64,000 nt of DNA from an uncultured Bacteroidota bacterium (GTDB lineage Bacteria; Bacteroidota; Bacteroidia; Bacteroidales; VadinHA17), in assembly GCA_963744745.1 (NCBI GenBank), contig CAVUVD010000019.1, positions 427,651 through 491,650 on the forward strand, read 5' to 3'. The translations under genes were made by a program, and so were the position numbers. Positions 20,656 to 64,000 of the stretch are shown piece after piece; the first letter of the stretch is position 1; the number at the start of each line of letters is the position of its first letter. The notes beneath the pieces were generated by a model. It did not search any database. It was not told where the DNA came from and saw only the letters and a list, made by a program, of their open reading frames with translations.

Positions 20656-21822
20656 CTGCCGACCCAACCTGGAGTTTTTACTGACTCAGATGCAACAGTA
20701 TGCCAGGGTGAAGGTGGTGTATTGTACACAGTTCCGAATGATCTTACTGTAACCTATAGCTGGAGTTACGATGGTGCAGATGCAACAATAAATGGAACCG
20801 GGAATTCGGTAACAGTTGACTTTTCCACGACAGCAACATCGGGTACTCTATCAGTGGCAGCGACAAACGGATGCGGAACAAGCACAGCAAGGACTATTGA
20901 CATCACGGTGAATCCTCTGCCAGCCCAACCTGGAGCATTCACAGCATCAGAGGCATCAGTCTGTCAGGGAGAGAACGGAGTAGAATACACTGTTCCTCTT
21001 GATGCAACTGTATCCTATAACTGGAACTATGACGGTACCGGAGCAACTATTAACGGGAGCAGTAATAGCATAACAGTTGATTTCTCGATAACTGCAACAG
21101 CCGGAACTCTTTCAGTAACAGCCACAAACGGATGTGGCACAAGTTCTGCAAGGACAATAGATATTACAATCAATCCTCTTCCCGCCCAGCCTGGAGCATT
21201 CACAGCATTCACAACACCAGTCTGCCAGGGAGAGAGTGGAGTTATATACACTGTTCCAAATGACCTTGCCGCTTCCGGTTATACATGGTCTTACAGCGGA
21301 ACAGGTGCCATAATAAATGGTACCACCAATTCTGTAACAGTTGACTTCTCAGCAACAGCAACATCTGGAACATTATCAGTCACAGCCGACAATGGTTGTG
21401 GTTCCAGCCTGGCAAGAACAATTGATATCACGGTTAACCCGCAGCCACAGGGGAGCCTTACATCTAACGGACCGTTCTGCGGCACCGGTGCAGGCATGCT
21501 CACCTGGACAGCAACGAGTGGTACAGGTCCGTATACAGTGATATACAATGACGGAACAGCCGACCGTACAGCAAATGGAGTAGTAAGCGGAACACCGTTT
21601 GCAGTGTTCACCACACCGGTCACCTCAACGACAACCTATACGCTGGTATCTGTAGAAGATGCCACGACATGTATAAGAAGTGCAGGGTTCACGGAGGCGC
21701 AGCCACAATCACCGTCAATCCTCAGCCACAGGGCAGCCTTACAGCTAACGGACCGTTCTGCGGCACCGGTGCAGGGATGCTCACCTGGACAGCAACGAGT
21801 GGTACAGGTCCGTATACAGTGA
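19192..21822 (+). CDS. giant adhesin, segment 3 (5 repeat units, 3 PLPxQPG modules, 1 unit)
   Basis: The in-frame repeat sequence runs from about 19218 to about 21694, where the same 1-nt deletion recurs. Confidence 0.6.
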   Translation: MYKKCRVHGGAATITVNPQPQGSLTANGPFCGTGAGMLTWTATSGTGPYTVIYNDGTADRTESGVVSGTPFAVFTTPVTSTTTYTLVSVEDATTCIRSAGFTVGAATITVNPQPQGSLTSNGPFCGAGAGMLTWTATSGTGPYTVIYNDGTADRTENGVVSGTPFAVFTTPVTSTTTYTLVSVEDATTCIRSAGFTVGAATITVNPQPQGSLTSNGPFCGAGAGMLTWTATSGTGPYTVIYNDGTADRTENGVVSGTPFAVFTTPVTSTTTYTLVSVEDATTCIRSAGFTVGAATITVNPQPQGSLTANGPFCGTGAGMLTWTATSGTGPYTVIYNDGTADRTENGVVSGTPFAVFTTPVTSTTTYTLVSVEDATTCIRSAGFTVGAATITVNPQPQGSLTANGPFCGTGAGMLTWTATSGTGPYTVIYNDGTADRTESGVVSGTPFAVFTTPVTSTTTYTLVSVEDATTCIRSAGFTVGAATITVNPLPTQPGVFTDSDATVCQGEGGVLYTVPNDLTVTYSWSYDGADATINGTGNSVTVDFSTTATSGTLSVAATNGCGTSTARTIDITVNPLPAQPGAFTASEASVCQGENGVEYTVPLDATVSYNWNYDGTGATINGSSNSITVDFSITATAGTLSVTATNGCGTSSARTIDITINPLPAQPGAFTAFTTPVCQGESGVIYTVPNDLAASGYTWSYSGTGAIINGTTNSVTVDFSATATSGTLSVTADNGCGSSLARTIDITVNPQPQGSLTSNGPFCGTGAGMLTWTATSGTGPYTVIYNDGTADRTANGVVSGTPFAVFTTPVTSTTTYTLVSVEDATTCIRSAGFTEAQPQSPSILSHRAALQLTDRSAAPVQGCSPGQQRVVQVRIQ
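20656..21441 (+). repeat. three ~87-aa PLP(T/A)QPG...CQGE...NGCG modules, copy 1 of a 786-bp duplicated block
   Basis: Nearly identical to 24261-25046 (offset 3605 nt). I saw only two amino-acid differences (SVAATNGCGTSTAR vs SVEATNGCGTSAAR). Confidence 0.9.
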
Positions 21823-51072: not shown

Positions 51073-51375
51073 ATGAGCGAAGAATTGATTTATCAAAAAC
51101 TGGATAACATTGAAAAGTTACTGGTAGAACAGTCACTTCTGAAAAAAGAAGTCCTGAATTTTAACGAAACGGCGCTTTATCTTGAAGTGTCTCATTCGCA
51201 CCTGTACAAACTGACCAGTACGGGAGCAATCCCTGCATACAAGCCAAACGGTAAAAAGCTTTACTTCAATCGGAAGGAGCTTGATGTATGGTTGCTCAGT
51301 AACAAACAGGTTTCTACTGATGAAATCGGGCAACAGGCTGATGAATTTCAAATGAAAGCAGGGAGGGCAAGGTAA
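51073..51375 (+). CDS. excisionase-type helix-turn-helix (HTH_17-like) DNA-binding protein of an integrative/mobilizable element
   Basis: LNFNETALYLEVSHSHLYKLTSTGAIPAYKPNGKKLYFNRKELDVWL. Confidence 0.7.
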   Translation: MSEELIYQKLDNIEKLLVEQSLLKKEVLNFNETALYLEVSHSHLYKLTSTGAIPAYKPNGKKLYFNRKELDVWLLSNKQVSTDEIGQQADEFQMKAGRAR

Positions 51376-52158
51376 TGAATGAACTTATTCAACCATTGCT
51401 CACCCTGATGAACGATATCAGGGAAGTTAAAGCATGTATGCAAATTCTAAAGCAAACTCATGCTGAAAAATTCAAAGAAAGCTGGATAGACGCGCAGGAC
51501 GTGATGCTTGCCCTCAACATCAGCAAACGAACTTTACAATCTCTCCGGGATAAAGGCATTTTGCCTTATCAATTATTCCGATGGATTCCGTAAGGCATTC
51601 CATCACGAAACAATCCGGTACTATCGCAAAACGGATCGTGAGTTTGTGGACATTGATTGCCCCCGGCTTTCTGCGGTTCTGTCGGGCACTCCAAAGCAGA
51701 TACAGAACTTGATACCTGAAGTTGAAAACGGATTATTCAGCCGCTTCATATTCTATTACCTGGAAATGTCATCTGTTTGGAAGGATGTATTCGAACGCAA
51801 GGCTGAAAATGGGCTGGATGATTATTTTGGCCGATTTGCACAACAATATTATGAATTGCATAAAATCATGAAATCCACGCTAAATATTGAATTTACCCTT
51901 ACAGTTAGCCAGCAGCAACAATTCAACAATATTTTTGCCCGATGGCAGAACATTTATGAAACGCTTGTGGGACAGGAATACACTGCTACCGTGAGAAGAT
52001 TGGGGCTGATTACTTTTCGTATGGCAATGATTTTTTCGGTATTGAGAATAATGGAAAATGGGGAATTGCCGCTAAAGCTGGTTTGTGAAGAACGTGAGTT
52101 TCAAAATGCTATTTCCATAACTGGAGTATTAATTGTTCATGCGAAGAAAGTATTTTGA
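51375..52158 (+). pseudogene. deletion fusion: second HTH_17-like gene truncated and joined out of frame to the C-terminal part of a DUF3987-like gene
   Basis: Frame 1 reads DAQDVMLALNISKRTLQSLRDKGILPY and then stops (QLFRWIP*). A different frame continues YSDGFRKAFHHETIRYYRKTDREFVDIDCPRLSAVLSGTPKQ...GLFSRFIFYY. The junction is near 51570. Confidence 0.55.
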
Positions 52159-52434
52159 AAAAAGGATTAATCCACAGGGATAAACACGATTGTTATTTTA
52201 AATTTCCCAATGAGGAAATTAAGGATTTAGGGGATTCATAGGAAGATATCCCCTGTTTCCTCAAAATCCTTAATATCCTTACTAATACAAATAAATATTT
52301 CTATACCCTGTTTTTCCTGATTTCACTATGCTTTTAATCAGGCTGAAATAACAACATAAATATTGAATTTAATATGATAAATATTTTGCGATAATCACCG
52401 AAAAAAGGTATCTTTCGCAAACATTTACTCTCTT

Positions 52435-53250
52435 ATGGATATACAAAAAGAAATACGGATACTTACCTGGATTGAACTTCTTCAATCAAAAGGAGCCTTC
52501 GCATTTTCTATTGAATCTGCAAAATCTGAATTACCCGGATATACCGAAATTGCCTTAAAAAGAGCTTTAAGCCGTTTATCTGAAAAAGGCAAAATTATTT
52601 CTATATATAAAGGGTATTACCTCATACTTCCTCCCCAATACTCAATTAAAGGTATTTTACCACCTGTATTGTTTTTAGATGCTTTTTTCAAATTTCTCAA
52701 CAGGCCGTACTATGTTTCTCTTATAAATGCTGCTGCATTTCATGGTGCATCGCACCAGCAACCACAGGAATATTTTGTTATGACCAGCTTTCCTGCAATG
52801 CGGGCTACCCAAAAAAAAGGATTAAAAATCAATTATGTAAGCATCGATAAAATTCCGGAAAAGCTCCTTGAAAAACGCAAAACCGAAGCAGGATACCTTA
52901 CCATTTCAAATCCTGCGCTTACAGCAACCGACCTTGTACAGTTCGAAAAAAGGATTGGAGGTTTAAACCGTGCTGCAACAATATTAAATGAATTGATGGA
53001 AGTTCTTAAACCTTCCAATTTTAACAATGATATTCTGACTCACGCTGCTGTTACTACGCTTCAGCGTTTGGGTTATCTGCTGGAATTTATCTGTTTAAAC
53101 AGTGGACTATCGAACGCCTTATTTAAAAAAATGGAACAACAAAGGCTCAGGTTATTTCGGATTCCGCTAAAAGCATCTGGGCAAGCAAACGGATTTTCTT
53201 CTGACAATCGTTGGAAGGTAATTGTAAACACTGAAATTGATATTGAATAA
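52435..53250 (+). CDS. abiEi: AbiEi family type IV toxin-antitoxin antitoxin
   Basis: 271-aa ORF with a winged-helix-like N-terminus. Its stop overlaps the start of the AbiEii-type ORF (ATAATGA at 53247-53253), the classic abiE arrangement. Confidence 0.7.
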   Translation: MDIQKEIRILTWIELLQSKGAFAFSIESAKSELPGYTEIALKRALSRLSEKGKIISIYKGYYLILPPQYSIKGILPPVLFLDAFFKFLNRPYYVSLINAAAFHGASHQQPQEYFVMTSFPAMRATQKKGLKINYVSIDKIPEKLLEKRKTEAGYLTISNPALTATDLVQFEKRIGGLNRAATILNELMEVLKPSNFNNDILTHAAVTTLQRLGYLLEFICLNSGLSNALFKKMEQQRLRLFRIPLKASGQANGFSSDNRWKVIVNTEIDIE

Positions 53251-54041
53251 TGATTCCACAAGCATACATAACGGAATGGAGCCAACAAGTACCCTGGCAA
53301 ACAAACGAGCAGGTTGAACAAGACCTTGTGATTTGCCGTGCATTGGTAGAATTGTTTTCCGATGATTGGTTAGCTGAAAACCTTGCATTCAGGGGAGGAA
53401 CTGCTTTGCATAAGCTATTTCTCAGCCCTCAGCAACGATATTCTGAAGATATTGACCTGGTACAAATCACAGCTGAACCATTTGGACCGATAGTCGACAG
53501 AATAAGAGAAAGGCTTGTATTTTTGGGAGAACCTAAGCGAAGTCCTAAAGCCCATAACTTTACATTGTACTTTCAGTTTGAATCTGAATTTCCACCCACG
53601 GTTAATCTCCGGTTGAAAGTTGAAACCAATACAAGGGAACATTTTACGGTAAGTGATTTGGTAAAAGTACCTTTCGAAGTTAATTCTTCATGGTTTACGG
53701 GTAATTGCGAACTTACCACTTATGCATTAGAAGAATTATTGGGCACCAAACTGCGGGCGTTATACCAACGCAAAAAGGGAAGAGATTTGTATGATTTATA
53801 TAATGCCCTTTCCCGCAATTCCAAACTTGATATAGATTTGCTTTTAAACTGCTACCGCGAATACATGAAGTTTTCGGTTGACAATCCGCCAAGCCAAAGG
53901 GAATTTATTTTAAACATGGAATCGAAAATAAATGACCCTGAGTTTTCGGGCGATACAACAGCAATACTGCGACAAGGGCAGGAATATGAGCCATTGGCAG
54001 CTTACGAATTGATTAAAACAGAATTAATTGAGAAAATATAG
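53250..54041 (+). CDS. abiEii: AbiEii/AbiGii family nucleotidyltransferase toxin
   Basis: FRGGTALHKLF...RYSEDIDL motif block typical of DUF1814/AbiEii. Confidence 0.8.
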   Translation: MIPQAYITEWSQQVPWQTNEQVEQDLVICRALVELFSDDWLAENLAFRGGTALHKLFLSPQQRYSEDIDLVQITAEPFGPIVDRIRERLVFLGEPKRSPKAHNFTLYFQFESEFPPTVNLRLKVETNTREHFTVSDLVKVPFEVNSSWFTGNCELTTYALEELLGTKLRALYQRKKGRDLYDLYNALSRNSKLDIDLLLNCYREYMKFSVDNPPSQREFILNMESKINDPEFSGDTTAILRQGQEYEPLAAYELIKTELIEKI

Positions 54042-54093
54042 CTATACAAAAGACATTTTAAAAAGATATACAAAACATATTAAGTAAATAATA

Positions 54094-56205
54094 ATGGCAA
54101 TTAAAAAATCTGAATTATACAGTTCGCTTTGGGCAAGTTGCGATGAATTAAGAGGCGGTATGGATCCGAGCCAGTACAAGGATTATGTGTTGGTTTTATT
54201 GTTTTTAAAGTATGTTTCCGACAAATATGCGAACGATCCCGATGCTATCATTGAAATTCCCGCAGGTGGAAGTTTCAAAGATATGATAGCACTGAAGCAC
54301 CAAAAAGATATTGGTGATAAAATGAATACCATCATAGGAGAATTGGCAAAAGCCAATGACCTGGTTGGGGTAATTGATGTTGCCGACTTTAACGATGACG
54401 AAAAGCTTGGAAAAGGCAAGGAAATGGTCGACAAACTTACCAACCTGATTTCCATTTTTCAGAACCCTGCATTAGATTTCAGTAAAAACCGGGCTGAAGG
54501 CGATGATATTCTGGGCGATGCTTTTGAATACCTGATGAAAAACTTTGCCACAGAAAGTGGTAAGAGTAAAGGACAATTCTATACCCCCAGTGAAGTAAGC
54601 CGTGTAATTGCAAAAGTATTAGGTATACACAATGCCACAAACAAAACTACTTTTTATGACCCCACTTGTGGTTCTGGTTCATTGTTGCTTAAAGCAGTGG
54701 ATGAAGCAGATGGTAAAGGTACAATTTACGGTCAGGAAAAAGATGTGGCAACCGCTGCCCTTGCGCGTATGAATATGATTTTACACGGTCAGGAAGCCAT
54801 TGAAATCCACCGTGGACAAAGCACACTCTCCGACCCGTTTTTTAAAGACGCTAACGGCTATTTAAAAACATTTGACTTTGTAGTTGCCAATCCCCCTTTT
54901 TCATCTAAAAACTGGACTTCCGGATTTAATCCACAGGAAGATATTTATGAGCGTTTTGAATTAGATGTAGAAGAAAGCCAAAAGACCGGGGAAAAATTAT
55001 TTAAAACGCCACCTGAAAAAAACGGCGATTTTGCTTTTCTGCTGCATATAATTAAATCACTAAAGAGCACAGGAAAAGGCGCCTGCATACTTCCTCACGG
55101 TGTATTGTTCCGTGGAAATGCCGAAGCTGCTATTCGAAAAAGTATCATTGAAAGGGGTTATATTAAAGGAATTATCGGTTTACCTGCCAACCTGTTTTAT
55201 GGCACAGGTATTCCTGCCTGCATTATTGTAATCGACAAAGAAGGCGCCGATAAAAGGAAACATCTTTTTATGATTGATGCCGGGAAAGGCTATATCAAAG
55301 ACGGCAACAAAAACCGCTTACGCGAACAGGATATTCATAAGATTGTGGATGTATTTAACAAGCAGATACCAATCCCAGGATTCAGCCGATTGGTCAGCAT
55401 CGAAGAAATTAGCGACCCTAAAAATGACTACAACCTCAATATCCCACGCTACATTGATAATCAGGAAACAGAAGATATACAAGACATTGAAGCACATTTA
55501 TTAGGTGATATTCCGAATGTTGATATTGAGGCTTTGAATGAATATTGGGAAGTATATAAAACATTGAAAGGTGAATTGTTTTCTGCCAGCAAACGAGCCA
55601 ATTACAGCCAGTTAAAAATAAGCAAAGACCTCATAAGGCAAACAATATTCAACCATCCTGAATTCGTGACTTTTAGCCAGAAAATGGATGCTCTGTTTAC
55701 TGATTGGAAAACCCGTAACACCAAAACATTAAAATCATTAACAATAGGCATTAAGCCAAAACAAATTATATACAAGGTGTCGGAAGATGTTTTGAAAGCA
55801 TACACCGATAAGCCGTTGATGGACAAATACGATGTGTACCAGCATTTAATGAATTACTGGGCTGAGACCATGCAGGATGATTGCTATTTAATAGCTGCCG
55901 ATGGTTGGAAAGCCGAACTTAGCATTATAAAGCAAACTAAAACCGCTACCGTTTGGGATTGCGACCTTGTACCAAAAACATTGGTGATGAACCGCTATTT
56001 CTTAACAGAGAAAAAAGCCGTTGAACAATTGGAGGCAGAGAAAGAAGGTATTGCTGCACAAATTGCTGAAATGGAAGAAGAACATAACACAGAAGACGGA
56101 TATTTTTCTGAATTAGATAAACTAAACAAAGCCAATGTACAAAAACGTTTAAAAGAATTGCTGGCAACGCAGTCAAAAAACAAAATAACTGAAATATCTA
56201 GTTGA
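54094..56205 (+). CDS. hsdM: type I restriction-modification system methyltransferase subunit (HsdM-like N6-adenine MTase), orphan
   Basis: Motif I YDPTCGSGSLLL and motif IV VVANPPFS. It has a long coiled-coil C-terminal extension. No hsdS or hsdR is present in the window. Confidence 0.8.
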   Translation: MAIKKSELYSSLWASCDELRGGMDPSQYKDYVLVLLFLKYVSDKYANDPDAIIEIPAGGSFKDMIALKHQKDIGDKMNTIIGELAKANDLVGVIDVADFNDDEKLGKGKEMVDKLTNLISIFQNPALDFSKNRAEGDDILGDAFEYLMKNFATESGKSKGQFYTPSEVSRVIAKVLGIHNATNKTTFYDPTCGSGSLLLKAVDEADGKGTIYGQEKDVATAALARMNMILHGQEAIEIHRGQSTLSDPFFKDANGYLKTFDFVVANPPFSSKNWTSGFNPQEDIYERFELDVEESQKTGEKLFKTPPEKNGDFAFLLHIIKSLKSTGKGACILPHGVLFRGNAEAAIRKSIIERGYIKGIIGLPANLFYGTGIPACIIVIDKEGADKRKHLFMIDAGKGYIKDGNKNRLREQDIHKIVDVFNKQIPIPGFSRLVSIEEISDPKNDYNLNIPRYIDNQETEDIQDIEAHLLGDIPNVDIEALNEYWEVYKTLKGELFSASKRANYSQLKISKDLIRQTIFNHPEFVTFSQKMDALFTDWKTRNTKTLKSLTIGIKPKQIIYKVSEDVLKAYTDKPLMDKYDVYQHLMNYWAETMQDDCYLIAADGWKAELSIIKQTKTATVWDCDLVPKTLVMNRYFLTEKKAVEQLEAEKEGIAAQIAEMEEEHNTEDGYFSELDKLNKANVQKRLKELLATQSKNKITEISS

Positions 56206-56210
56206 AGCCA

Positions 56211-56711
56211 TCACCAATACTTTTCCTTGTTTCTGACTTCCCGTCCACGTTTTTTCGGAGCAGATTTTTCTTCTTCATTTTGTTCAGTGTCAACGACCTC
56301 AAAAAAACCTTCATCCAGTTCTACAATCTTATCCAACTTGTACCTACTATCCCTGGATCCCATGGTTACTCTCAGCTTCTGCATCATAAACCAAATGGGT
56401 TCATAAAATTTATGTCCTATCTGCCTTTGAAGCTCTTTCGCTGAGAAAGTCTTTTTTGTCCCTGTTAACAAATGAATTGCAATAAACCAGTATCTGAATG
56501 GAAGATTACTTGCCTGCATTACTGTTCCACTTCTTAAGGTTGTTCTGGTCTTGCATTTCTTGCATTGATACTGCTCGATGGTTTGTAACCAATAGTGATC
56601 AGTACCACCACATTTTCTACAGATGACTCCTTGTTCATCCCGGAATTCCTTAAATTTGATCCTGCATGAGGATTCATCAGGAAATGACTCGATAAATTTG
56701 ATTAGATTCAC
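56211..56711 (-). mobile_element. IS1595-family transposase fragment (N-terminal zinc-ribbon/HTH part only)
   Basis: CRKCGG...YQCKKCKTRTTLRSGTVMQASNLPFRYWFIAIHLL...SAKELQRQ. It ends after VELDEGFF, and the DDE domain is missing. Confidence 0.7.
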
Positions 56712-56730
56712 GTCAATATTTTTCTTATAA

Positions 56731-57339
56731 TATAATCAATTATTCATCATTCCCGACACCCATATAAAGAAATTCGGCGAACAGGAGCATTATTATACGT
56801 CGTTTGTAAATCAACCTGATAGTTTCTTTCCGGTTACCAAAAAAAGTAAACCTATATATAGAAAGGAAACCAATGAAGAAGGTGAAGAAATTTATGTAAA
56901 AGTTGATGGTTCAGCATTTTGTGTTTCTATCTTAAAAAGATATTACAATTCCCTCATACATGCATATTTCAAAGACCTGAATTATATGGTTAAACCTAAC
57001 TTCATTGACGATACCGAAATATGGATTACAGGCCTGCGAAGCACTAACGAATATAATTTTTATGAAAAATTTACCGTAAAAGTACAAATTGCAAAAGTAA
57101 CCAGGCAGCCAGAGCCTTTGATAACCTATGCCGGACAATCGAAGGTTTTTAAAAAAAGCATTGCCGATTTTATTGATCTAGTTTCTCCGAAATGTTTAAA
57201 TTGGGTGATTTTCAGTAATAATTTGTACAAATTTGATGAGCTGCCCGAGGAAGCGAGGCGAAATTATGAAAATGTATTTCCGGTATGGAATTTCGATTTT
57301 AGAAATGCCCTGCGCCAGGAAACGGTATTGACCGACTGA
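56731..57339 (+). pseudogene. open frame without start codon; possible N-terminal fragment of a prokaryotic Argonaute
   Basis: The frame is open from 56731, but the first ATG is at 56986. It lies 19 nt from the divergent IS1595 fragment. The assignment rests on context with the next ORF and weak recollection of pAgo N-domains. Confidence 0.3.
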
Positions 57340-57359
57340 TCATACACTTTTTCAAGAAC

Positions 57360-57833
57360 ATGAATAGCAAAGAATTCGATCCTATCGAAGAAGGTTTAAA
57401 AGAAATGGGATTGAATATTCCGGTTTTCATTTTGTCAATCAACAAAACAGAATCGCATGATATTGTGGCTTTTGATAACAACTGGTCAAAACTAATGCCC
57501 GCGAGCGGCACATACATAAACCTTGGGCATAATAGGTTCTTACTCTTTAACAACACCCGGTACAATGATGATACTTCCAGGGATATTGACGGGTTTCCGT
57601 TCCCGATCAAATTAAGCATAACCTGTACTGATCCGGAATTAACGGATGATACCAAAATCATAAGAGAATTAATAGACCAGGTTTACCAGTTCAGCCGTAT
57701 GTTATGGAAATCCGTGAGGCAGCAGAACCTGCCGGTTACCATCAAATATCCGGAAATGGTAGCCGAGATATTCCCGTATTTCGTCGGCAACGAAATACCT
57801 GATTTCGGGAAGGATAATTTGTGGTTTTTGTGA
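57360..57833 (+). pseudogene. C-terminal PIWI-domain fragment of a prokaryotic Argonaute
   Basis: At 157 aa it is far too short for a pAgo. GTYINLGHNRFLLFNNTRY...GFPFPIKLSI...IIRELIDQVYQFSRMLWKSVRQQNLPVTIKYPEMVAE resembles the end of PIWI domains (the ...LP.T..Y....A pattern). Confidence 0.5.
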
Positions 57834-57911
57834 GATAGTTTAAATTTTCTTTCAGGTTTATTTGGAGCAATTTTTTTATTTTCTTATTTAGAATGTTTTT
57901 TTAAGGATTTA

Positions 57912-58826
57912 ATGCTAGTTAAACAATTTCCAAATATAAAAAACATCGAGTGTACAAGTCGTTGTAATTTAAATTGCCCAATCTGTGTGCTAAAAACCAG
58001 AGATTCAGGCGATATAGATTTCAATCTTCTTTTGAAAATATTGGAGAAAAATTGTGATTTTATGGTAGGTCAGAAAATTTGGTTACATTATAGAGGTGAA
58101 CCATTTTTAAATAAAAACATTTTTCAAATCATAAATTTATTTGATAAGTTTAAAATTAAAAGCAGATTATCCACAAATGGCATACTCCTATTAAACCAAA
58201 ATATTAAAAAAATTTTAGATTCAAAATTAGAAATGATGGTCATTTCAATGATAACAAATAATCCAGTCTATTATAAAAAGCTTCGTGGTGCAGATTTATA
58301 TTATTCAATCTTGAAGAAAGTGGAAAATTTGATTCTAATGAAGAAAACATTAAACTCTCAGTTAGATATTCAGGTAATGGGATTGGATTATGGTCAATCA
58401 AAAAACGAAATAAATGAATTTATTGATTATTTCCATAATTTAGGAGTATGTGTCGGAATTCATAAATATAGTACAAGACTTCAGGAATCAAGATATAAAC
58501 CTTTTGATATTAAAGAAGTAGTTCGCCAACCCTGTCATTGGCCATTTAATAATACAGTAATACTTTATAATGGCGATATTACAACATGTTATTTTGATTT
58601 GAATGGCCGTGGCGTTATAGATAACTTGAAAAACTATAATTATTCAATACTTGATCTATGGAATAGCACTAAATACAAACATATAAGAGCTAATCACCTT
58701 AAATATAAATTCAAAGGTCATTGTGAACATTGTACTGATTGGATCTATAATAATTCAAATTCGAAACTTGAAGTAATTAGAATGATGACAATCTATCCTT
58801 TAAAAGGTATACCATATGATACATAA
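57912..58826 (+). CDS. radical SAM enzyme with partial SPASM/twitch-like C-terminal Cys cluster
   Basis: CNLNCPIC (CxxxCxxC) near the N-terminus. C-terminal CHWPFNNTVILYNGDITTCYFD...CEHCTDW. Confidence 0.75.
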   Translation: MLVKQFPNIKNIECTSRCNLNCPICVLKTRDSGDIDFNLLLKILEKNCDFMVGQKIWLHYRGEPFLNKNIFQIINLFDKFKIKSRLSTNGILLLNQNIKKILDSKLEMMVISMITNNPVYYKKLRGADLYYSILKKVENLILMKKTLNSQLDIQVMGLDYGQSKNEINEFIDYFHNLGVCVGIHKYSTRLQESRYKPFDIKEVVRQPCHWPFNNTVILYNGDITTCYFDLNGRGVIDNLKNYNYSILDLWNSTKYKHIRANHLKYKFKGHCEHCTDWIYNNSNSKLEVIRMMTIYPLKGIPYDT

Positions 58827-58848
58827 CATTATATAATAATCCATATCA

Positions 58849-59595
58849 ATGAACAATAATAAGGAATATGCTATTGTGACTGGTGCTTCATCAGGCATTG
58901 GTGAAGCAATTGCAAAATATTTAACCAGTAAAAAAGTTATAGTTTTTGGTTTAGATATTCAAGAAGGAAAAGAAAAAGGAATCAGATTCTTGAAATGCGA
59001 TGTTAGTAAAGAAAATGAAGTTACTAATTCTCTCGCCTTAATTGAAAAAGAAACAAATCAAATAAAATATTTAGTTAACGTTGTTGGTATATTATCAGTA
59101 GGTGGGGTATCTTATATTAAAGACCAAAATATTACATATTGGAATACAATTTTAAATATTAATTTGACAAGTATTTTAATAATGATAAAAAATGTTCTAC
59201 CTTTTTTAATAAGATCGCATGAAGCAAGTGTCGTAAATATTTCATCTGACCAATCATTCAAAGGATTAAAAGGAGCTGCACCCTACAGTGTTTCAAAAGC
59301 AGGTGTGAACGCCCTTACAAAAATAGCAGCTCTTGAATTATCAGAATTTGGAATCAGAGTGAATGCAGTAGCCCCTGGAACAGTTAAAACCAATTTTCTA
59401 CAATCAGTCATAAATGATACTGATAAAATTACTAGTATGTATAGAAATGCAGACAAAAAACTGCCTTTTGGTTTAATAGAACCAAATGATGTTGCGGCTT
59501 TAGTAGATTTTTTATTATCTAATAGATCAAAAAGAATCACTGGCGAAGTCATACTGATTGATAGCGGACAGATTTTAAATTCCATTTCATTATAA
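58849..59595 (+). CDS. short-chain dehydrogenase/reductase (SDR) family oxidoreductase
   Basis: TGASSGIG cofactor motif, NVVG, and the catalytic S...YSVSK. Confidence 0.85.
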   Translation: MNNNKEYAIVTGASSGIGEAIAKYLTSKKVIVFGLDIQEGKEKGIRFLKCDVSKENEVTNSLALIEKETNQIKYLVNVVGILSVGGVSYIKDQNITYWNTILNINLTSILIMIKNVLPFLIRSHEASVVNISSDQSFKGLKGAAPYSVSKAGVNALTKIAALELSEFGIRVNAVAPGTVKTNFLQSVINDTDKITSMYRNADKKLPFGLIEPNDVAALVDFLLSNRSKRITGEVILIDSGQILNSISL

Positions 59596-59609
59596 TCTAT
59601 ATAATCAGA

Positions 59610-60785
59610 ATGAACTCATTAAATTTTGATCCAGAAACTCTATCTCTTGAATTAGCTACTTCAAACGGGAATAATTGGATACTAAATCCACCTATCCAAC
59701 AGAAAATGAATCAATTAATAACTAAGTACCGGATCGAAACAACATTTTTATGTAATCTATCATGTGAATACTGTATTATTTTTAAGAATAATGTTACCTC
59801 TAAGATAACAAATATGAGTCTGGAAGTAATTAATAAACTCATATCACAATTTAATCAAGAAGTTAATAAAAATGGAACTCTTTATCTTTTTGGCGCCGAA
59901 CCATTATTGAATTGGAATGTCATTAAATATGCAGTGGAGAATTGTTTGGGCCGTAAAGTAATATTTACCAATGGGCTTTTATTGTCTGAAAATAAGATAA
60001 AGTTATTTAAAGAAAATGAAGTTACTATTATGATTTCTCTTGATGGGTATAAACCAGAGCATAATGTGTATCGTTTTAAAAATAAATCGAAAGAGTTATT
60101 AAAGGATATTTTGAAAAAGATTGAATTGTTAAAAAGAAATAACTGTAATTTCATTTTGTGTTCTCTGGTGAATAAGTATAACATTGAAGACTTATACAGT
60201 ATTACGAGTTATTTTTTTAATAATCTGGCTATTGAAAATTATAGTTTTTCATACCCACATTATACTTTGGTTAACTCTGAGACAAATAATTTTGATATTT
60301 CAAAATATACAAACCAAATTTGTGGTTTATTAGAACTTACAAAAAAAGAAAAAATTTATATTCATCAATTAGCCGATGTTTTACATACATTATTAACCAG
60401 ACAACCAAAACATTATTCTTGTGGTGTTGGCACATGTCAGAGAACATTTTACCCAGATGGCTCAGAGACTGTCTGTACAAAATTAGATCAAATACCCTGT
60501 TTTTCAATTAAGACTTTTTTAGAAAAAACATTACCCGATAACAATTTAAATTGCAGCCATTGTTCCGCAAGGAAAATATGTGGTGGTGGATGCCCTTTTG
60601 ACGCTGCTATTCATCCTAATAAAATAGGTGTTGATTCAAGGATATGTTTTTATAAGAAGGAGCTATTAATGTTCATTTTAAAAGACATGGAAAAAGAGTT
60701 GAGTGACACAACCGAGCTAGAAATTAAAAGCAAAATGGAAAACTATTTAGAGATATCACATACTAATTGGGATAAATTATGTTGA
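59610..60785 (+). CDS. radical SAM/SPASM domain protein (anSME / peptide-maturase-like)
   Basis: CNLSCEYC motif. SPASM-type YSCGVGTCQRTFYPDGSETVC and CSHCSARKICGGGCPFDA. Confidence 0.8.
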   Translation: MNSLNFDPETLSLELATSNGNNWILNPPIQQKMNQLITKYRIETTFLCNLSCEYCIIFKNNVTSKITNMSLEVINKLISQFNQEVNKNGTLYLFGAEPLLNWNVIKYAVENCLGRKVIFTNGLLLSENKIKLFKENEVTIMISLDGYKPEHNVYRFKNKSKELLKDILKKIELLKRNNCNFILCSLVNKYNIEDLYSITSYFFNNLAIENYSFSYPHYTLVNSETNNFDISKYTNQICGLLELTKKEKIYIHQLADVLHTLLTRQPKHYSCGVGTCQRTFYPDGSETVCTKLDQIPCFSIKTFLEKTLPDNNLNCSHCSARKICGGGCPFDAAIHPNKIGVDSRICFYKKELLMFILKDMEKELSDTTELEIKSKMENYLEISHTNWDKLC

Positions 60786-61699
60786 AAAAAGTGAGAAATA
60801 ACACATCTAATAACAATTTAGATCCCTGGAATAACTTACTGAATCCTATAAATTCTAGTTATCTATTAAATAACCTTGAAATATTTGATAAGGACCCAAA
60901 TCAGAATATAATATTTGGATATAAGAAAATCTCACTATTTCCCAAAGAAAAATTATTGTTGTTTTTAGGTACAGATGTTTCTGGAGATTTGCATTTAGGC
61001 CATTTATCACTTCTTTTAATCGCAAAAGCATTAGAAAATATTTGGAATGGTGAATTAATTGTGTCTTTAAATGAAATTGAAAGTTTGACATCCAGAGATA
61101 TGCCTATAAAAGAACTTTTCGCGAATAAAAACTCTATTATTAAAGAATTGATTGCTTTAAATGTTAAATACCATAGCAGGTTAGATGATAACTTAGTCGT
61201 CTTATTATCAACACATCTTCTCAATTTAATAATAAACAAAGATATTATTGATTTCAAATATTATTATAGTAAACGATTAAACATACGAGACATACAAAGT
61301 TTGTGCGTCATGTTAGTTACTCCAATAATTATTTCATATCATAATGATTCAAAAAAAATAATGGCCATATACGGTAAAGATGAAATGTCTCATTTATGCT
61401 TAATTTATGATTTGTATAATTCACCTTGGTTTAAAGAAATCATATATAATGTAGCTGGAATTAACTGTCCTACCATAGGATTTATGATTGTCAATCTGAT
61501 TCCAGGTTTAGATAGTAAAAGAAAAATGAGTAAAACTTTACCCGAAAATTCAATTCTAATCAAAAACATTTCTAAAGGACATTCAATAACAATTCCCATT
61601 CAATTATATTTAAAACAAGTCATACAACTCGTTTCATCCATAAATGAAGAAATACAATTAAACGAAATGTATTTAAAATTAAGACAACTTCTAGACTAA
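60779..61699 (+). CDS. class Ic aminoacyl-tRNA-synthetase-like protein (TyrRS/TrpRS-type paralog)
   Basis: GTDVSGDLHLGHL (HIGH-type), GKDEMSH (GxDQ-like) and PGLDSKRKMSKT (KMSKS-type). At 306 aa it is similar in size to minimal archaeal-type TyrRS. The start overlaps the upstream stop (ATGTTGA). Confidence 0.65.
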   Translation: MLKKVRNNTSNNNLDPWNNLLNPINSSYLLNNLEIFDKDPNQNIIFGYKKISLFPKEKLLLFLGTDVSGDLHLGHLSLLLIAKALENIWNGELIVSLNEIESLTSRDMPIKELFANKNSIIKELIALNVKYHSRLDDNLVVLLSTHLLNLIINKDIIDFKYYYSKRLNIRDIQSLCVMLVTPIIISYHNDSKKIMAIYGKDEMSHLCLIYDLYNSPWFKEIIYNVAGINCPTIGFMIVNLIPGLDSKRKMSKTLPENSILIKNISKGHSITIPIQLYLKQVIQLVSSINEEIQLNEMYLKLRQLLD

Positions 61700-61706
61700 A
61701 CAAAAT

Positions 61707-62828
61707 ATGAAATATTTTGATGTTATTTTTTCAAACAACTTTAACTTAAATCTTTTAGATAGCTTTAATGAGTTATTGAAAAATCAATTAAGAAATGAAA
61801 ATAATTTTCTTAAAAGTATTTCTAGTTCAATAAAGAATCTCAAGAACGATTTAACAGATGTACTGTCTTCTTATAGTATCTCTTTTGGATTTAACATTAC
61901 ATCAAGTATAATCTTGGTGCTTGAGAAACTTCCAAAATATATTGTGATTACAAATAAAGAGTTTCCGCCCATTATCTCACAAGTATTCCATTCAAACAAA
62001 CAAATTACAGGAATTCTTGATATTCAAAACATGAATTATGAAGAACTATTCAATATTGATAACATTGATGAAATAATTTTTTTGATAAGCCATATATCCT
62101 ATATTGATGGAGAAGATATTCTTGATAATTTTTTAAACTCTGTTACCAATATTAAGCAATTGAGGACAAAAAAAATACATATCATTATAGATGGAGCTCA
62201 TTCTATTTGCAATAATTTTATTGTAAGCGATATCCCGGAATTGCATAAAAAATTATCAGCTGTCGTTAACATTGAAAGTTTTACTTATGTCTTTGATTTC
62301 CACAAATGGGTTCAAGGTTTTTTTGGTCTCTCTGTTATCATTTCTAGTCGTAAGACAATTTGTAATTCTTTAAATCATATTTTTCCTAACACCTTAAATT
62401 TTGATGATTATTATATTAGGTTCCATCCTCCGGTCTCAGTATCTTTTAATCCTTTATTGATATACTGGAAGCTAAATATAGACAATTTCAGCTTCCGTTT
62501 ATTTGATGGCAATCAAATTAAAAGGAATAATAGTTTAAAATCAGTCTTTATCTCTTCTTATAAAAACAATTCGGAGATACAATTGATACTAAACAGTAAC
62601 AATTTAATTTCATTAAATTCTGCAAATCCTGAATATCTTTATAAATATTTATTAAATAATAATATACAAACTCATTTAATAGGAGGTAGAACAATCGATA
62701 CAAATTGTAGAATTCAAATTATTAGTAACAATGTAAGATTAGCATTTTCTTCTATTTTAATTGATAATGAAGATATTAATTATTTGACTACTAAACTAAA
62801 ACAATACAAATATGAAGAAAAGGCATAA
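61707..62828 (+). CDS. class V-like (cysteine desulfurase / aminotransferase fold) PLP-dependent enzyme
   Basis: IIDGAHS and FDFHKW...FFGLSV resemble the DGAQS / SxHKxxGPxGxG PLP-lysine region. The sequence is very AT-biased and divergent. Confidence 0.5.
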   Translation: MKYFDVIFSNNFNLNLLDSFNELLKNQLRNENNFLKSISSSIKNLKNDLTDVLSSYSISFGFNITSSIILVLEKLPKYIVITNKEFPPIISQVFHSNKQITGILDIQNMNYEELFNIDNIDEIIFLISHISYIDGEDILDNFLNSVTNIKQLRTKKIHIIIDGAHSICNNFIVSDIPELHKKLSAVVNIESFTYVFDFHKWVQGFFGLSVIISSRKTICNSLNHIFPNTLNFDDYYIRFHPPVSVSFNPLLIYWKLNIDNFSFRLFDGNQIKRNNSLKSVFISSYKNNSEIQLILNSNNLISLNSANPEYLYKYLLNNNIQTHLIGGRTIDTNCRIQIISNNVRLAFSSILIDNEDINYLTTKLKQYKYEEKA

Positions 62829-63588
62829 AGTTGTTACAAAACTATTTGACATATCATTTAAAAAAAACAAAAATGAGCAAATATTTTGGAAAGAGATATT
62901 TCAAAATAAAATTAATATCTATAACAAAAATGGTATATCTGATTGGGATATCAGAGCAAGTAAGAGATATTATCAAATTTTATTATGCGATATTAAGGAA
63001 TTACTTGAAATTAAAAATTTTAATGGTATAAGAAGTTTAGAATTAGGCTGTGGAACCAGTATACTCTCTTTGCTAATGGCATCTGAAGGAGCGACTGTTT
63101 ATTTATTAGATCAATTACAGGAAGCATTAGACTATAGCAAAATATTGGAAAATCAAATTTCGAAAAGCCTTAATTTTACAGGAAAAGTTAATTATATTAA
63201 TGCAAATTTATTTGAAATAGAAGATTTAAAAAAAACATTCATAGATTTTGATATTGTTCATAATATTGGAGTTATTGAAGAACATAGTCCTACTGAAGCT
63301 CAAAGTATAATTGAAATTATGAAGAAAATTGCAAATAAATATGTAATCGTAGGTGTACCAAATTTCTTCAATCCTTATCTTCTAAGTTTTTGGTTTAAAA
63401 ACGGAAAAGCAAACGAACTTTATTACAGTAGGGGATCTCTTTGCAGACTGATGAAGAGATTAGAACTTAGAGAAACAAAAGTAGTTACAACTTCATACTT
63501 ATATCCGTTTAAGAAATTTACACGTTTAGAAAAATTTACTGCTAATATTGGATTTGGATTTCTTCACTTAGCTGTAGCTACGATTTAA
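62812..63588 (+). CDS. class I SAM-dependent methyltransferase
   Basis: Motif I is SLELGCGTSILSL, followed by an acidic LLD. The start overlaps the upstream ORF by 17 nt. Confidence 0.75.
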   Translation: MKKRHKVVTKLFDISFKKNKNEQIFWKEIFQNKINIYNKNGISDWDIRASKRYYQILLCDIKELLEIKNFNGIRSLELGCGTSILSLLMASEGATVYLLDQLQEALDYSKILENQISKSLNFTGKVNYINANLFEIEDLKKTFIDFDIVHNIGVIEEHSPTEAQSIIEIMKKIANKYVIVGVPNFFNPYLLSFWFKNGKANELYYSRGSLCRLMKRLELRETKVVTTSYLYPFKKFTRLEKFTANIGFGFLHLAVATI

Positions 63589-63604
63589 AAAAAATTATTA
63601 GCCT

Positions 63605-64000
63605 ATGTTAATAAACGAACTTTGTCGTTTCAGGCCTCCAACTAGAGGTAGACTTTTAATTTGGGAAATTACCAATAATTGTAATTTATTATGTAAACAT
63701 TGTTGTAATTCCAGCAATAATCAAATAAATAAGAAAGAATTAAGTATTGATATTATTTCATCTATTATACCCGAAATAATTAAATTAAATATTCGTGAAA
63801 TTTACTTTACGGGAGGAGAACCTCTAGTTAGAAAAGATTTTTATAATATTTTATCATTATTTAAAGGTCTTTCTATAGATACCTTTTTTGCTACAAATGG
63901 GACATTATTTGATATTGAGAAAGTTAAAAAAATAAATAACCTCAATATAAAACAGGTCACAATTAGTCTTGATAGTCATTTCCCATCAATTCATAATAAC
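63605..64000 (+). CDS. radical SAM enzyme (third in operon), 3' end outside window
   Basis: This frame is not in the supplied ORF track because it has no stop. My own translation from the ATG at 63605 is MLINELCRFRPPTRGRLLIWEITNNCNLLCKHCC...IYFTGGEPLVRKDF...ATNGTL...ISLDS. Confidence 0.75.
   Translation, partial: MLINELCRFRPPTRGRLLIWEITNNCNLLCKHCCNSSNNQINKKELSIDIISSIIPEIIKLNIREIYFTGGEPLVRKDFYNILSLFKGLSIDTFFATNGTLFDIEKVKKINNLNIKQVTISLDSHFPSIHNN

Follow-up and report, generated by a model that had tools for sequence, protein, structure and literature searches.

Aminoacyl-tRNA synthetase (aaRS)-like enzymes work outside translation in several small-molecule pathways, including the IleRS-like SbzA of SB-203208 biosynthesis, the AlaRS-like AcmF of ascamycin biosynthesis and the cyclodipeptide synthases (PMC12945691), as well as the MetRS-like FuzG (PMC13149037). 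A further candidate for this group was found in a 64,000-nucleotide stretch of DNA from a Bacteroidota host (hereafter the window; contig CAVUVD010000019.1, positions 427,651-491,650, forward strand). The last part of the window, 57,834-64,000, is the beginning of an AT-rich island of ten genes, numbered p1 to p10 in order, the remainder of which is carried by an overlapping contig, L001. This island is an undescribed radical S-adenosylmethionine (SAM) biosynthetic cluster that contains an aaRS paralogue, p4, and includes two near-orphan protein families. The most likely interpretation is that of an undescribed specialised-metabolite operon centred on cysteine or Cys-tRNA chemistry. Specifically, and with confidence only slightly better than even, we favour a laterally acquired operon of about 9.8 kb whose ten genes most likely make a small, sulfur-containing, cysteine-derived metabolite, and not a polysaccharide locus, a ribosomally synthesised and post-translationally modified peptide (RiPP) cluster or a recognised defence system.

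As in the pathways above, the synthetase catalytic core of p4 is detached from translation and located in a biosynthetic operon, and p4 is of class Ic, as are the cyclodipeptide synthases with their TyrRS/TrpRS-like fold. The SB-203208 cluster is also similar in that a genuine aaRS is present in the same cluster. However, the HIGH and KMSKS signatures that are lost in cyclodipeptide synthases are kept in p4, and p4 is TrpRS-like, whereas SbzA, AcmF, FuzG and MshC are IleRS-, AlaRS-, MetRS- and CysRS-like, respectively. Moreover, p4 is always paired with a class-V pyridoxal phosphate (PLP) enzyme, with no GNAT, PEARL, nonribosomal peptide synthetase (NRPS) or cupin partner, and beyond the superfamily level it has no detectable sequence relation to the described aaRS-like natural-product enzymes. 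The CysRS-like MshC is a further precedent.

The synthetase paralogue p4 and its PLP-enzyme partner p5

The p4 gene (window 60779..61699, on the + strand like all of p1 to p7) encodes a 306-aa truncated class-Ic (TrpRS/TyrRS-like) aaRS paralogue, in which the HLGH (residues 72-75) and KMSKT (residues 249-253) motifs are kept. Both motifs are invariant in the relatives of p4 and align to those of TrpRS. Consistent with the aaRS-like protein proposed in the initial annotation of this DNA, which had been made from the letters and open reading frames (ORFs), p4 scores 23.4 bits against Pfam tRNA-synt_1b, just over the cut-off of 21.1, and its best NCBIfam matches are TrpRS. The p4 family profile matches the eukaryote/archaeal-type TrpRS (3foc, E = 1e-3) over the HIGH/KMSKS regions. 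The possibility that p4 is a canonical TrpRS or TyrRS was rejected, with both the equivalog similarity (20 bits against the trpS model TIGR00233, cut-off 176.75) and the C-terminal anticodon-binding domain failing. Roughly 130 residues follow KMSKS in bacterial TrpRS. Because only 53 residues follow KMSKT in p4, the protein lacks a full anticodon-binding domain. The aromatic-amino-acid-derived metabolite envisaged at first found no indication beyond the TrpRS-like fold of p4. Relatives of p4 are scarce. A word-indexed search of 5.8 billion proteins returned one (P0002, locus L003), located on a 1.4-kb contig with uninformative flanks, and pattern scans of 185,579 GTDB species-representative genomes and of JGI metagenomes returned none.

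The next gene, p5 (61707..62828), encodes a 373-aa divergent fold-type I class-V PLP enzyme, which its family profile places in the cystine C-S lyase/cysteine desulfurase group. The p5 protein alone has no match in Pfam or NCBIfam. A 12-member family profile matches the C-DES cystine lyase (1elq, E = 2e-15) as well as PvdN and SufS/CsdB (about 1e-8), and distant members of the family carry a precomputed Pfam Aminotran_5 match. Asp162 and Lys200-Trp201 are invariant in the 12 members and line up with motifs of C-DES and SufS, and p5 thereby has both the pyridine-nitrogen-binding Asp and the Schiff-base Lys of a fold-type I PLP site. In agreement with this and with the PLP enzyme originally read from short motifs, all 50 top Foldseek matches listed for the AlphaFold2 model of p5 (pLDDT 58) are fold-type I PLP enzymes. 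No cysteine is conserved in the family in the loop preceding its C-terminal VRL(C/A)F segment, where p5 has Ala, and given the lack of a conserved persulfide cysteine p5 appears more consistent with a C-DES/Egt2-type lyase. The idea that p5 is a duplicate of SepCysS was rejected (hhalign probability 0.4%). The family is rare, with 14 representatives at E ≤ 1e-3 among 1.84 billion protein clusters in an exhaustive HMMER search, and pattern scans found 0 in GTDB representatives and three short contigs in JGI metagenomes.

The p4/p5 pair is present on L032, a 14.4-kb contig of 43% G+C, and on ten further contigs, which represent eight distinct versions; in one of these it lies immediately behind SepCysS. 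The two genes are adjacent, in either order, in L004-L009, L032, L033 and L034, and the stop and start of the p4- and p5-like genes overlap in L033 and L034. The third member of this set is p6 (62812..63588, 258 aa), encoding a class I SAM-dependent methyltransferase (Methyltransf_31, PF13847, E = 5e-8; UbiG-like at 38.5 bits against an NCBIfam cut-off of 103), whose orthologues (30-48%) follow or flank the pair in L004, L007, L008, L032 and L033. We refer to p4, p5 and p6 as module A. Upstream of the trio in L007, positions 1-570 are GC-richer and contain no credible ORF, Rfam match or tRNA; the trio there apparently opens a transcription unit of its own, not preceded by radical SAM genes.

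The combination of a PLP C-S lyase with a methyltransferase is the logic of LmbF/LmbG in lincomycin, of EgtE in ergothioneine and of GliI in gliotoxin biosynthesis. In LmbF/LmbG, EgtE, OvoB (ovothiol) and GliI with its S-methylation step, as in the island, a class-V or related PLP enzyme of the C-S lyase group stands beside a SAM methyltransferase and a cysteine source is implicated. The island differs in that the C-S bond would be formed by radical SAM/SPASM enzymes, whereas a sulfoxide synthase, a glutathione transferase or a mycothiol transferase serves in the described pathways. It also differs in that cysteine apparently enters via a cysteinyl-tRNA synthetase (CysRS), and in that p5 has no family-level match, with C-DES as its best solved relative.

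Linkage to cysteine and the proposed pathway

Four distinct contexts show several kb of sequence around p4-p5, and in three of the four an enzyme making Cys-tRNA(Cys) adjoins the pair. In the lineage represented by the window and L001, a CysRS gene lies inside the operon (p9). In L032, a CysRS gene (TIGR00435, 461 bits) is located in divergent orientation three genes from the pair. In L033 (ENA ERZ27275847, 1-2477, G+C 0.27), a SepCysS gene, of which the C-terminal 125 aa are visible (TIGR02539, E = 7e-50), shares 4 nt with the start of the p5-like gene, which is followed by a 306-aa p4-like synthetase paralogue and then by a convergent p6-like methyltransferase gene. The fourth context, a second contig (JGI) with the L032-type gene order, ends just where L032 carries CysRS. 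A TrpRS-like neighbour is not mentioned in a survey of SepCysS (PMC5424206). Because of the linkage to CysRS or SepCysS and because p5 falls in the C-S lyase/desulfurase group, the gene content points to cysteine or Cys-tRNA as the probable input of the pathway.

The CysRS gene of the island, p9 (L001 7460-8860), has a probable ATG start 16 nt beyond the p8 stop. Its product scores 393.6 bits against TIGR00435, above the cut-off of 340, which is the only NCBIfam equivalog cut-off reached in the island. It aligns end to end with the Borrelia CysRS 3sp1 (E = 2e-97) and contains the CGPTVY, HIGN, WHIECS and KMSKS motifs; its CysS_C and DALR_2 matches are weak and below the Pfam cut-offs. The p9 protein is therefore described here as a full-length, apparently functional CysRS. 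The G+C content at third codon positions (GC3) of p9 is 0.20, compared with 0.37-0.40 for host housekeeping genes, and this island-like value suggests that p9 is an extra cysS copy.

Complete, extra-looking aaRS genes are likewise co-transferred with biosynthetic genes in the clusters for mupirocin (IleRS), indolmycin (TrpRS), albomycin (SerRS) and borrelidin (ThrRS). By this logic the island would make an aaRS inhibitor, either a cysteinyl-adenylate mimic or a cysteine antimetabolite derived from a nucleoside, with the in-cluster CysRS as a drug-insensitive immunity copy. The full-length CysRS shares the composition of the island, indicating co-transfer, and CysRS occurs again beside the L032 cluster. 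In addition, nucleosidase, kinase, phosphatase and phosphoribosyltransferase genes accompany p7 and p8 in related clusters, and a full TyrRS heads one of them, L010, although its composition equals that of its surroundings and it could be a housekeeping gene. Resistance-gene logic of this kind is documented for altemicidin/SB-203208 (PMC13518217). In contrast to the self-resistance clusters, the synthetase here is a CysRS, and its place is taken in one relative, L033, by SepCysS, which is implausible as an inhibitor target or an immunity gene, so that a role of CysRS as a mere immunity gene fits poorly. Moreover, a full-text literature search returned no paper combining cysteinyl-tRNA synthetase, self-resistance and a biosynthetic gene cluster. 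On balance, the production of such an inhibitor is rather unlikely, although it is a plausible sub-case of the metabolite model.

The same linkage could be taken to mean that the core acts on tRNA. With Cys-tRNA(Cys) made by CysRS or SepCysS, the p4, p5 and p6 proteins would then convert the tRNA-bound cysteine in the style of SepCysS, SepSecS and SelA, or modify tRNA(Cys) in the style of GluQRS, yielding either a non-canonical aminoacyl-tRNA or a sulfur donor that depends on tRNA. Enzymes that form Cys-tRNA(Cys) are linked to module A in three contexts, including translational coupling to SepCysS, and SepSecS is the best Foldseek match of the p5 model, with SepCysS also among the matches listed. 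However, these ranks lie within noise, with E values of 3e-9 to 2e-7 across many PLP families for a model of pLDDT 58, and hhalign did not relate the p5 family specifically to the SepCysS fragment. GluQRS keeps the aaRS catalytic signatures and not the anticodon domain, and p4 likewise keeps the signatures without that domain. On the other side, no tRNA gene is present in the island or in L032-L034, and three radical SAM enzymes, an ATP-grasp ligase and a short-chain dehydrogenase/reductase (SDR) would be unexpected for an on-tRNA conversion. Compared with SepRS/SepCysS and SelA/SepSecS, the island similarly combines a synthetase-type enzyme with a fold-type I PLP enzyme, and these are physically linked to SepCysS or CysRS. 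It differs from them in that p4 is of class I and lacks an anticodon-binding domain, in that p5 has no specific similarity to SepCysS, and in having many extra tailoring enzymes and no dedicated tRNA gene. Action on tRNA is thus an improbable explanation for the core.

A broader version of this idea is that the conserved core (p4, p5 and p6, near CysRS or SepCysS) constitutes a previously unrecognised tRNA-dependent pathway with Cys-tRNA(Cys) as substrate, in which cysteine is either converted on the tRNA to a new residue or passed on, by a transferase derived from a class-Ic aaRS, to a scaffold that radical SAM enzymes have made. We consider this unlikely. If the aminoacyl-transfer version were true, it would define a new class of aminoacyl-tRNA-using enzymes between true synthetases and cyclodipeptide synthases, and if the conversion version were true, it would be a parallel to SepCysS/SepSecS chemistry.

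For the favoured reading, a cysteine-derived sulfur metabolite, the following scheme is proposed. The p9 CysRS would supply activated cysteine as Cys-tRNA or Cys-AMP. The p4 protein would join an amino acid to a non-canonical acceptor by adenylation, like MshC and the MetRS-like hydrazine synthetases; alternatively, it would use aminoacyl-tRNA, like SbzA, AcmF and the cyclodipeptide synthases. The SPASM radical SAM enzymes would form C-S or C-C bonds on the p4 conjugate, p5 would cut the cysteine C-S bond with the sulfur staying on the scaffold, p6 would methylate the product, and p10 would attach an amide-linked residue. Together with p2, p8 would process an adenosyl or ribosyl moiety, that is, the by-products 5'-deoxyadenosine and S-adenosylhomocysteine (SAH), or an adenosylated intermediate in the style of MqnE/MqnB and HpnH/HpnG.

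Several points weigh against a cysteine-derived sulfur metabolite. The sequence of p4 does not reveal which substrates the enzyme uses, and the AlphaFold2 model of p4, built on two sequences, has a pLDDT of 35. The radical SAM enzymes p1, p3 and p7 score best against peptide and tetrapyrrole maturases, not against small-molecule enzymes, and the atom methylated by p6 could be O, N, C or S. Apart from the family of p5 and the link to CysRS, nothing suggests sulfur chemistry, the linkage to CysRS or SepCysS rests on three contexts, and the full set of ten genes is found in one lineage only.

If the reading holds, the island would represent an uncharacterised biosynthetic logic in which a synthetase-derived ligase, an orphan PLP family, radical SAM/SPASM enzymes acting on a non-peptide substrate and a dedicated cysteine-activating enzyme are combined, and a class-Ic member would join the short list of aaRS-like natural-product enzymes. 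The operon is compact, with ten genes from a Bacteroidota host, and expressible; it could yield a new sulfur-containing antimetabolite, possibly one targeting CysRS, or a new extra-translational use of Cys-tRNA. The repeated linkage to CysRS or SepCysS makes this orphan cluster a specific and testable question.

Island composition and the accompanying enzymes

The G+C content is 0.269 in window 57912-64000 and 0.426 in window 1-57833. The minimum among upstream 6-kb windows is 0.363, and the immediate neighbourhood (48-57.8 kb) has a G+C content of 0.37. The sharp drop in G+C described in the initial annotation is therefore real, but the 45-50% used there for comparison was overstated, the actual contrast being about 27% versus 37-44%. 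All ten island genes, CysRS included, have GC3 values of 0.16-0.24, compared with 0.29-0.40 in RibBA, LptFG, HsdM and AbiE. The left edge of the island is an AT-rich leader of 78 nt (57834..57911, +), which extends from the stop of a prokaryotic Argonaute (pAgo) remnant to the first island gene and coincides with the composition break. Because G+C and GC3 are uniformly low and the island is set in a mosaic of mobile and defence remnants, the proposal of a horizontally acquired cassette is supported.

Two contigs recording p4, L001 and L002, were retrieved; the p6 query gave no exact record. L001 (11.1 kb) is 99.8% identical to window 57705-64000 and then continues past the window end (window coordinate = L001 coordinate + 57704). 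The junction between the island and the pAgo remnant is identical in the window and L001, and the island interior is independently covered by L002 at 99.8% identity. Together, the window and L001 give an island of about 9.8 kb with ten co-directional genes. The seven same-strand ORFs in the window are spaced by 22, 14, -7, 7, -17 and 16 nt, exactly as first listed, and spacings across the whole operon range from -17 to +22 nt, apart from one gap of 105 nt. At the right edge, the G+C content returns to 0.44 about 30 nt past p10, at about L001 10000.

Directly 3' of the island, L001 10000-11149 (about window 67.7-68.9 kb) is a stretch of about 1.1 kb with a host-like G+C content of 0.44, in which no convincing ORF, Rfam family or tRNA was found; a strong terminator-like hairpin lies at its end (L001 11000-11030). 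More generally, no Rfam family was found in L001 (at gathering score, including the stretch identical to the leader) or in L004-L009, and no tRNA in L001, L004, L007-L009 or L032-L034. In a promoter and terminator scan, site counts were not above those of shuffled sequences, and the island edges showed no flanking att-like repeats, direct or inverted, of more than 10 nt.

The motifs quoted in the initial annotation are all present in the translations, and its radical SAM, SDR and methyltransferase assignments were borne out by family profiles. The radical SAM family (PF04055) was confirmed for p1, p3 and p7 with E values of 3e-8 to 3e-19, and all three have the CX3CX2C motif and the C-terminal auxiliary-cluster cysteines of radical SAM/SPASM-twitch proteins. 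The first gene, p1 (57912..58826, 304 aa), encodes a radical SAM protein with a SPASM/twitch domain (Pfam Radical_SAM, E = 3e-8; SPASM, E = 3e-10), and its best NCBIfam matches are spiro-SPASM (77.8 bits, cut-off 250) and a tungsten-cofactor maturase (72.9 bits, cut-off 380). The p2 gene (58849..59595, 248 aa) encodes an SDR (adh_short_C2, E = 4e-46), the best NCBIfam matches of which, aldose and glucose 1-dehydrogenase, are below cut-off. The p3 gene (59610..60785, 391 aa) encodes a radical SAM protein (Radical_SAM, E = 2e-16) with a full 7-Cys SPASM domain, for which the Pfam SPASM model reports no match despite the canonical seven cysteines. The CX3CX2C motif and seven further cysteines of p3 are kept in its relatives P0008 and P0009.

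The p7 gene runs off the window (63605..64000, N-terminal 132 aa) and is complete in L001 (5901-6836, 311 aa); it encodes a NirJ/AhbD-like radical SAM/SPASM protein (Radical_SAM, E = 3e-19; SPASM, E = 5e-8). It is followed by p8 (L001 6820-7443, 207 aa), encoding a nucleosidase-like protein of the PNP/MTAN/AMP-nucleosidase fold, which matches PNP, AMP nucleosidase, MTAN and aminodeoxyfutalosine nucleosidase about equally (E = 3e-6 to 1e-4). The last gene, p10 (L001 8966-9967), encodes an MptN-like ATP-grasp ligase (E = 6e-8).

These enzymes raise the alternative that the substrate matured by p1, p3, p7, the ATP-grasp ligase and the methyltransferase is a ribosomal peptide whose gene lies elsewhere. 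The best family matches of p3 are the peptide maturases PapB, CcpM, YhhB and DynA, p7 matches WgkB, SkfB and StsB, and p10 weakly matches ATP-grasp RiPP maturases. However, all maturase scores are 4- to 10-fold under the equivalog cut-offs, as for p3 against the PapB ranthipeptide maturase (85.8 bits, cut-off 340), and the roughly 45 residues before the p3 cluster motif are probably too short for a typical RiPP recognition element. No non-overlapping ORF of at least 12 aa was found in the operon gaps and no precursor-like ORF at either edge, and the related clusters carry sugar, nucleotide and amino-acid enzymes, not peptides, proteases or transporters. A RiPP cluster is accordingly highly improbable.

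The originally reported absence of glycosyltransferase, NRPS/polyketide synthase and precursor-peptide genes holds across the ten-gene island, in which no transporter or protease was found either. A capsule or O-antigen locus was also rejected, as past the window L001 continues with radical SAM, nucleosidase-like, CysRS and ATP-grasp genes and then with non-coding DNA of host-like G+C content, with no glycosyltransferase past window position 64000. The island corresponds to no known RiPP or other biosynthetic gene cluster, and no paper describing its gene set was found in the literature.

The co-occurrence of the island genes, which had been put forward as a check, was found in L032, L010, L011, L004-L009 and L033. 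The island is a mosaic or fusion of two recurrent modules, A and B, the latter consisting of p7 and p8 and, in some clusters, also of p1, p3 and p2. L032 carries orthologues of six of the ten island genes in a different order (p4, 35%; p5, 37%; p6, 39%; p7, 41%; p8, 39%; CysRS, 42%), together with a terminal SDR fragment. L010 contains homologues of p2 (38%), p3 (40%), p7 and p8, together with a TyrRS, another TrpRS-like protein, a TrpD-like phosphoribosyltransferase and a nucleotidase (HAD)-radical SAM fusion. The TrpRS-like protein of L010 (334 aa) was rejected as a p4 orthologue; it is a remote homologue (hhalign probability 75%) and is treated as an analogue. L011-L016 contain homologues of p1 (31%, in L011), p3 (36%), p7 and p8, with a CobC-like phosphatase and a PfkB kinase.

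Within module B, p8 is kept with p7 in four cluster types, represented by the window, L010, L011 and L032. In the last three, sugar or nucleotide enzymes are invariably encoded with the p8-like gene and differ by cluster, namely PfkB and the CobC-like phosphatase in L011, the TrpD-like phosphoribosyltransferase, the HAD nucleotidase fusion and an SDR in L010, and a lactonase-like protein, a sugar-acid dehydratase-like protein and an HpcH aldolase in L032. A radical SAM enzyme conserved with a small PNP/MTAN-fold protein and ribose-type sugar enzymes is likewise found in MqnE/MqnB (futalosine) and HpnH/HpnG (hopanoid). In contrast to MqnE and HpnH, p7 has a SPASM/twitch domain and resembles NirJ/AhbD, menaquinone and hopanoid genes are absent here, and neither MqnE nor HpnH is among the 25 best radical SAM matches listed. 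Relatives of p8 score 19-28 bits against HpnG (cut-off 187) and match aminodeoxyfutalosine nucleosidase at E = 8.5e-5, and in contrast to MqnB and HpnG, p8 may simply clear 5'-deoxyadenosine and SAH.

Several features of the related contigs were observed in passing. L032 encodes two PhyH dioxygenases, a sugar-acid dehydratase-like protein of the enolase superfamily, a thiamine pyrophosphate (TPP) enzyme, an HpcH aldolase and a lactonase-like amidohydrolase. The two PhyH-type Fe/2-oxoglutarate dioxygenases occupy the place of p1 and p3 and may be an oxygen-dependent replacement of these radical SAM enzymes. The lactonase-like, sugar-acid dehydratase-like, HpcH aldolase and SDR genes of L032 resemble a non-phosphorylative sugar oxidation route, which could degrade 5-deoxyribose freed by the nucleosidase. 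The dioxygenase genes and those of this putative route lie within L032 4107-5881 and 7944-14169. In L011, a region on the minus strand, convergent to module B (13747-20822), encodes a HAD hydrolase, three methyltransferases, of which a CMAS-like one has 504 aa, a split TPP decarboxylase (169 + 190 aa) resembling phosphonopyruvate or sulfopyruvate decarboxylases, and a 355-aa protein with no match.

Defence remnants and other neighbours

The island lies directly behind defence genes, and an anti-phage role had been proposed from this position. In such a role, the island would resemble prokaryotic viperins, and its product, a modified nucleoside, nucleotide or aminoacyl-nucleotide, would stop phage replication or translation. 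AbiEi/AbiEii, HsdM and the PIWI part of a short pAgo were confirmed upstream, together with a fragment of the insertion sequence IS1595, and the combination of radical SAM and nucleotide-handling enzymes resembles viperin-kinase logic. The L010 relative is followed by genes for a TGS-domain protein and a weakly TIR-like protein and by a serine recombinase. However, the adjacency to defence genes is not conserved beyond this weak TIR-like neighbour in L010, and no recognisable defence neighbours are present in L032, L011-L016 or L004-L009, a small sample of short contigs. In line with the view that the gene set is no named system, the PADLOC pVip matches are generic cross-matches to the radical SAM core (29-59 bits), with one weak mad2 match on p6, and the NCBIfam viperin_w_prok model gives 27.2 and 54.6 bits against a cut-off of 180. 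Known defence architectures also do not resemble a set of ten biosynthetic genes with a housekeeping-type CysRS. The viral contigs and plasmids searched contained no close relatives, giving generic radical SAM matches only (23-34% identity) and none for p5. An anti-phage function of the island, to which only its position points, is therefore very unlikely.

The L010 genes downstream of the radical SAM cluster (9717-12842) encode the 344-aa TGS-domain protein, on the opposite strand, a 232-aa protein with a weak CAP12/Pycsar TIR-like match (E = 0.005) and a 265-aa protein with no match. They are followed by the large serine recombinase and may be a separate small defence or mobile module.

In the window itself, the region immediately upstream of the island (56211-57833) contains the short pAgo left as two ORFs (56986-57339 and 57360-57833), the second of which is similar to AfPiwi over the PIWI C-terminus (E = 1.5e-10). 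Just upstream of these ORFs, the opposite strand carries a 166-aa fragment of an IS1595-type zinc-ribbon transposase, and it appears that an insertion and a frameshift have inactivated the pAgo. Further upstream, window 51073-56205 encodes an excisionase-like helix-turn-helix protein and a truncated DUF3987 protein, followed by AbiEi/AbiEii and HsdM, with no hsdS or hsdR between HsdM and the insertion sequence fragment. This region looks like what is left of a Bacteroidota mobile element, together with an incomplete type I restriction-modification system.

The host is a member of Bacteroidota, and the window carries giant genes with CHU_C type IX secretion (T9SS) signals and SprB repeats. Four very large ORFs of 4154, 400, 876 and 2314 aa, the last three overlapping by about 150 nt, are located at window 5679-28613 (+) and encode HYR, PKD, Ig_7 and SprB repeats together with a CHU_C type IX secretion signal. 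At window 18-26 kb the G+C content is 0.50-0.54, with a strong A-over-T skew of 0.19-0.25. The four ORFs look like a single giant gliding or adhesin gene that was split by frameshifts or by repeats collapsed in the assembly.

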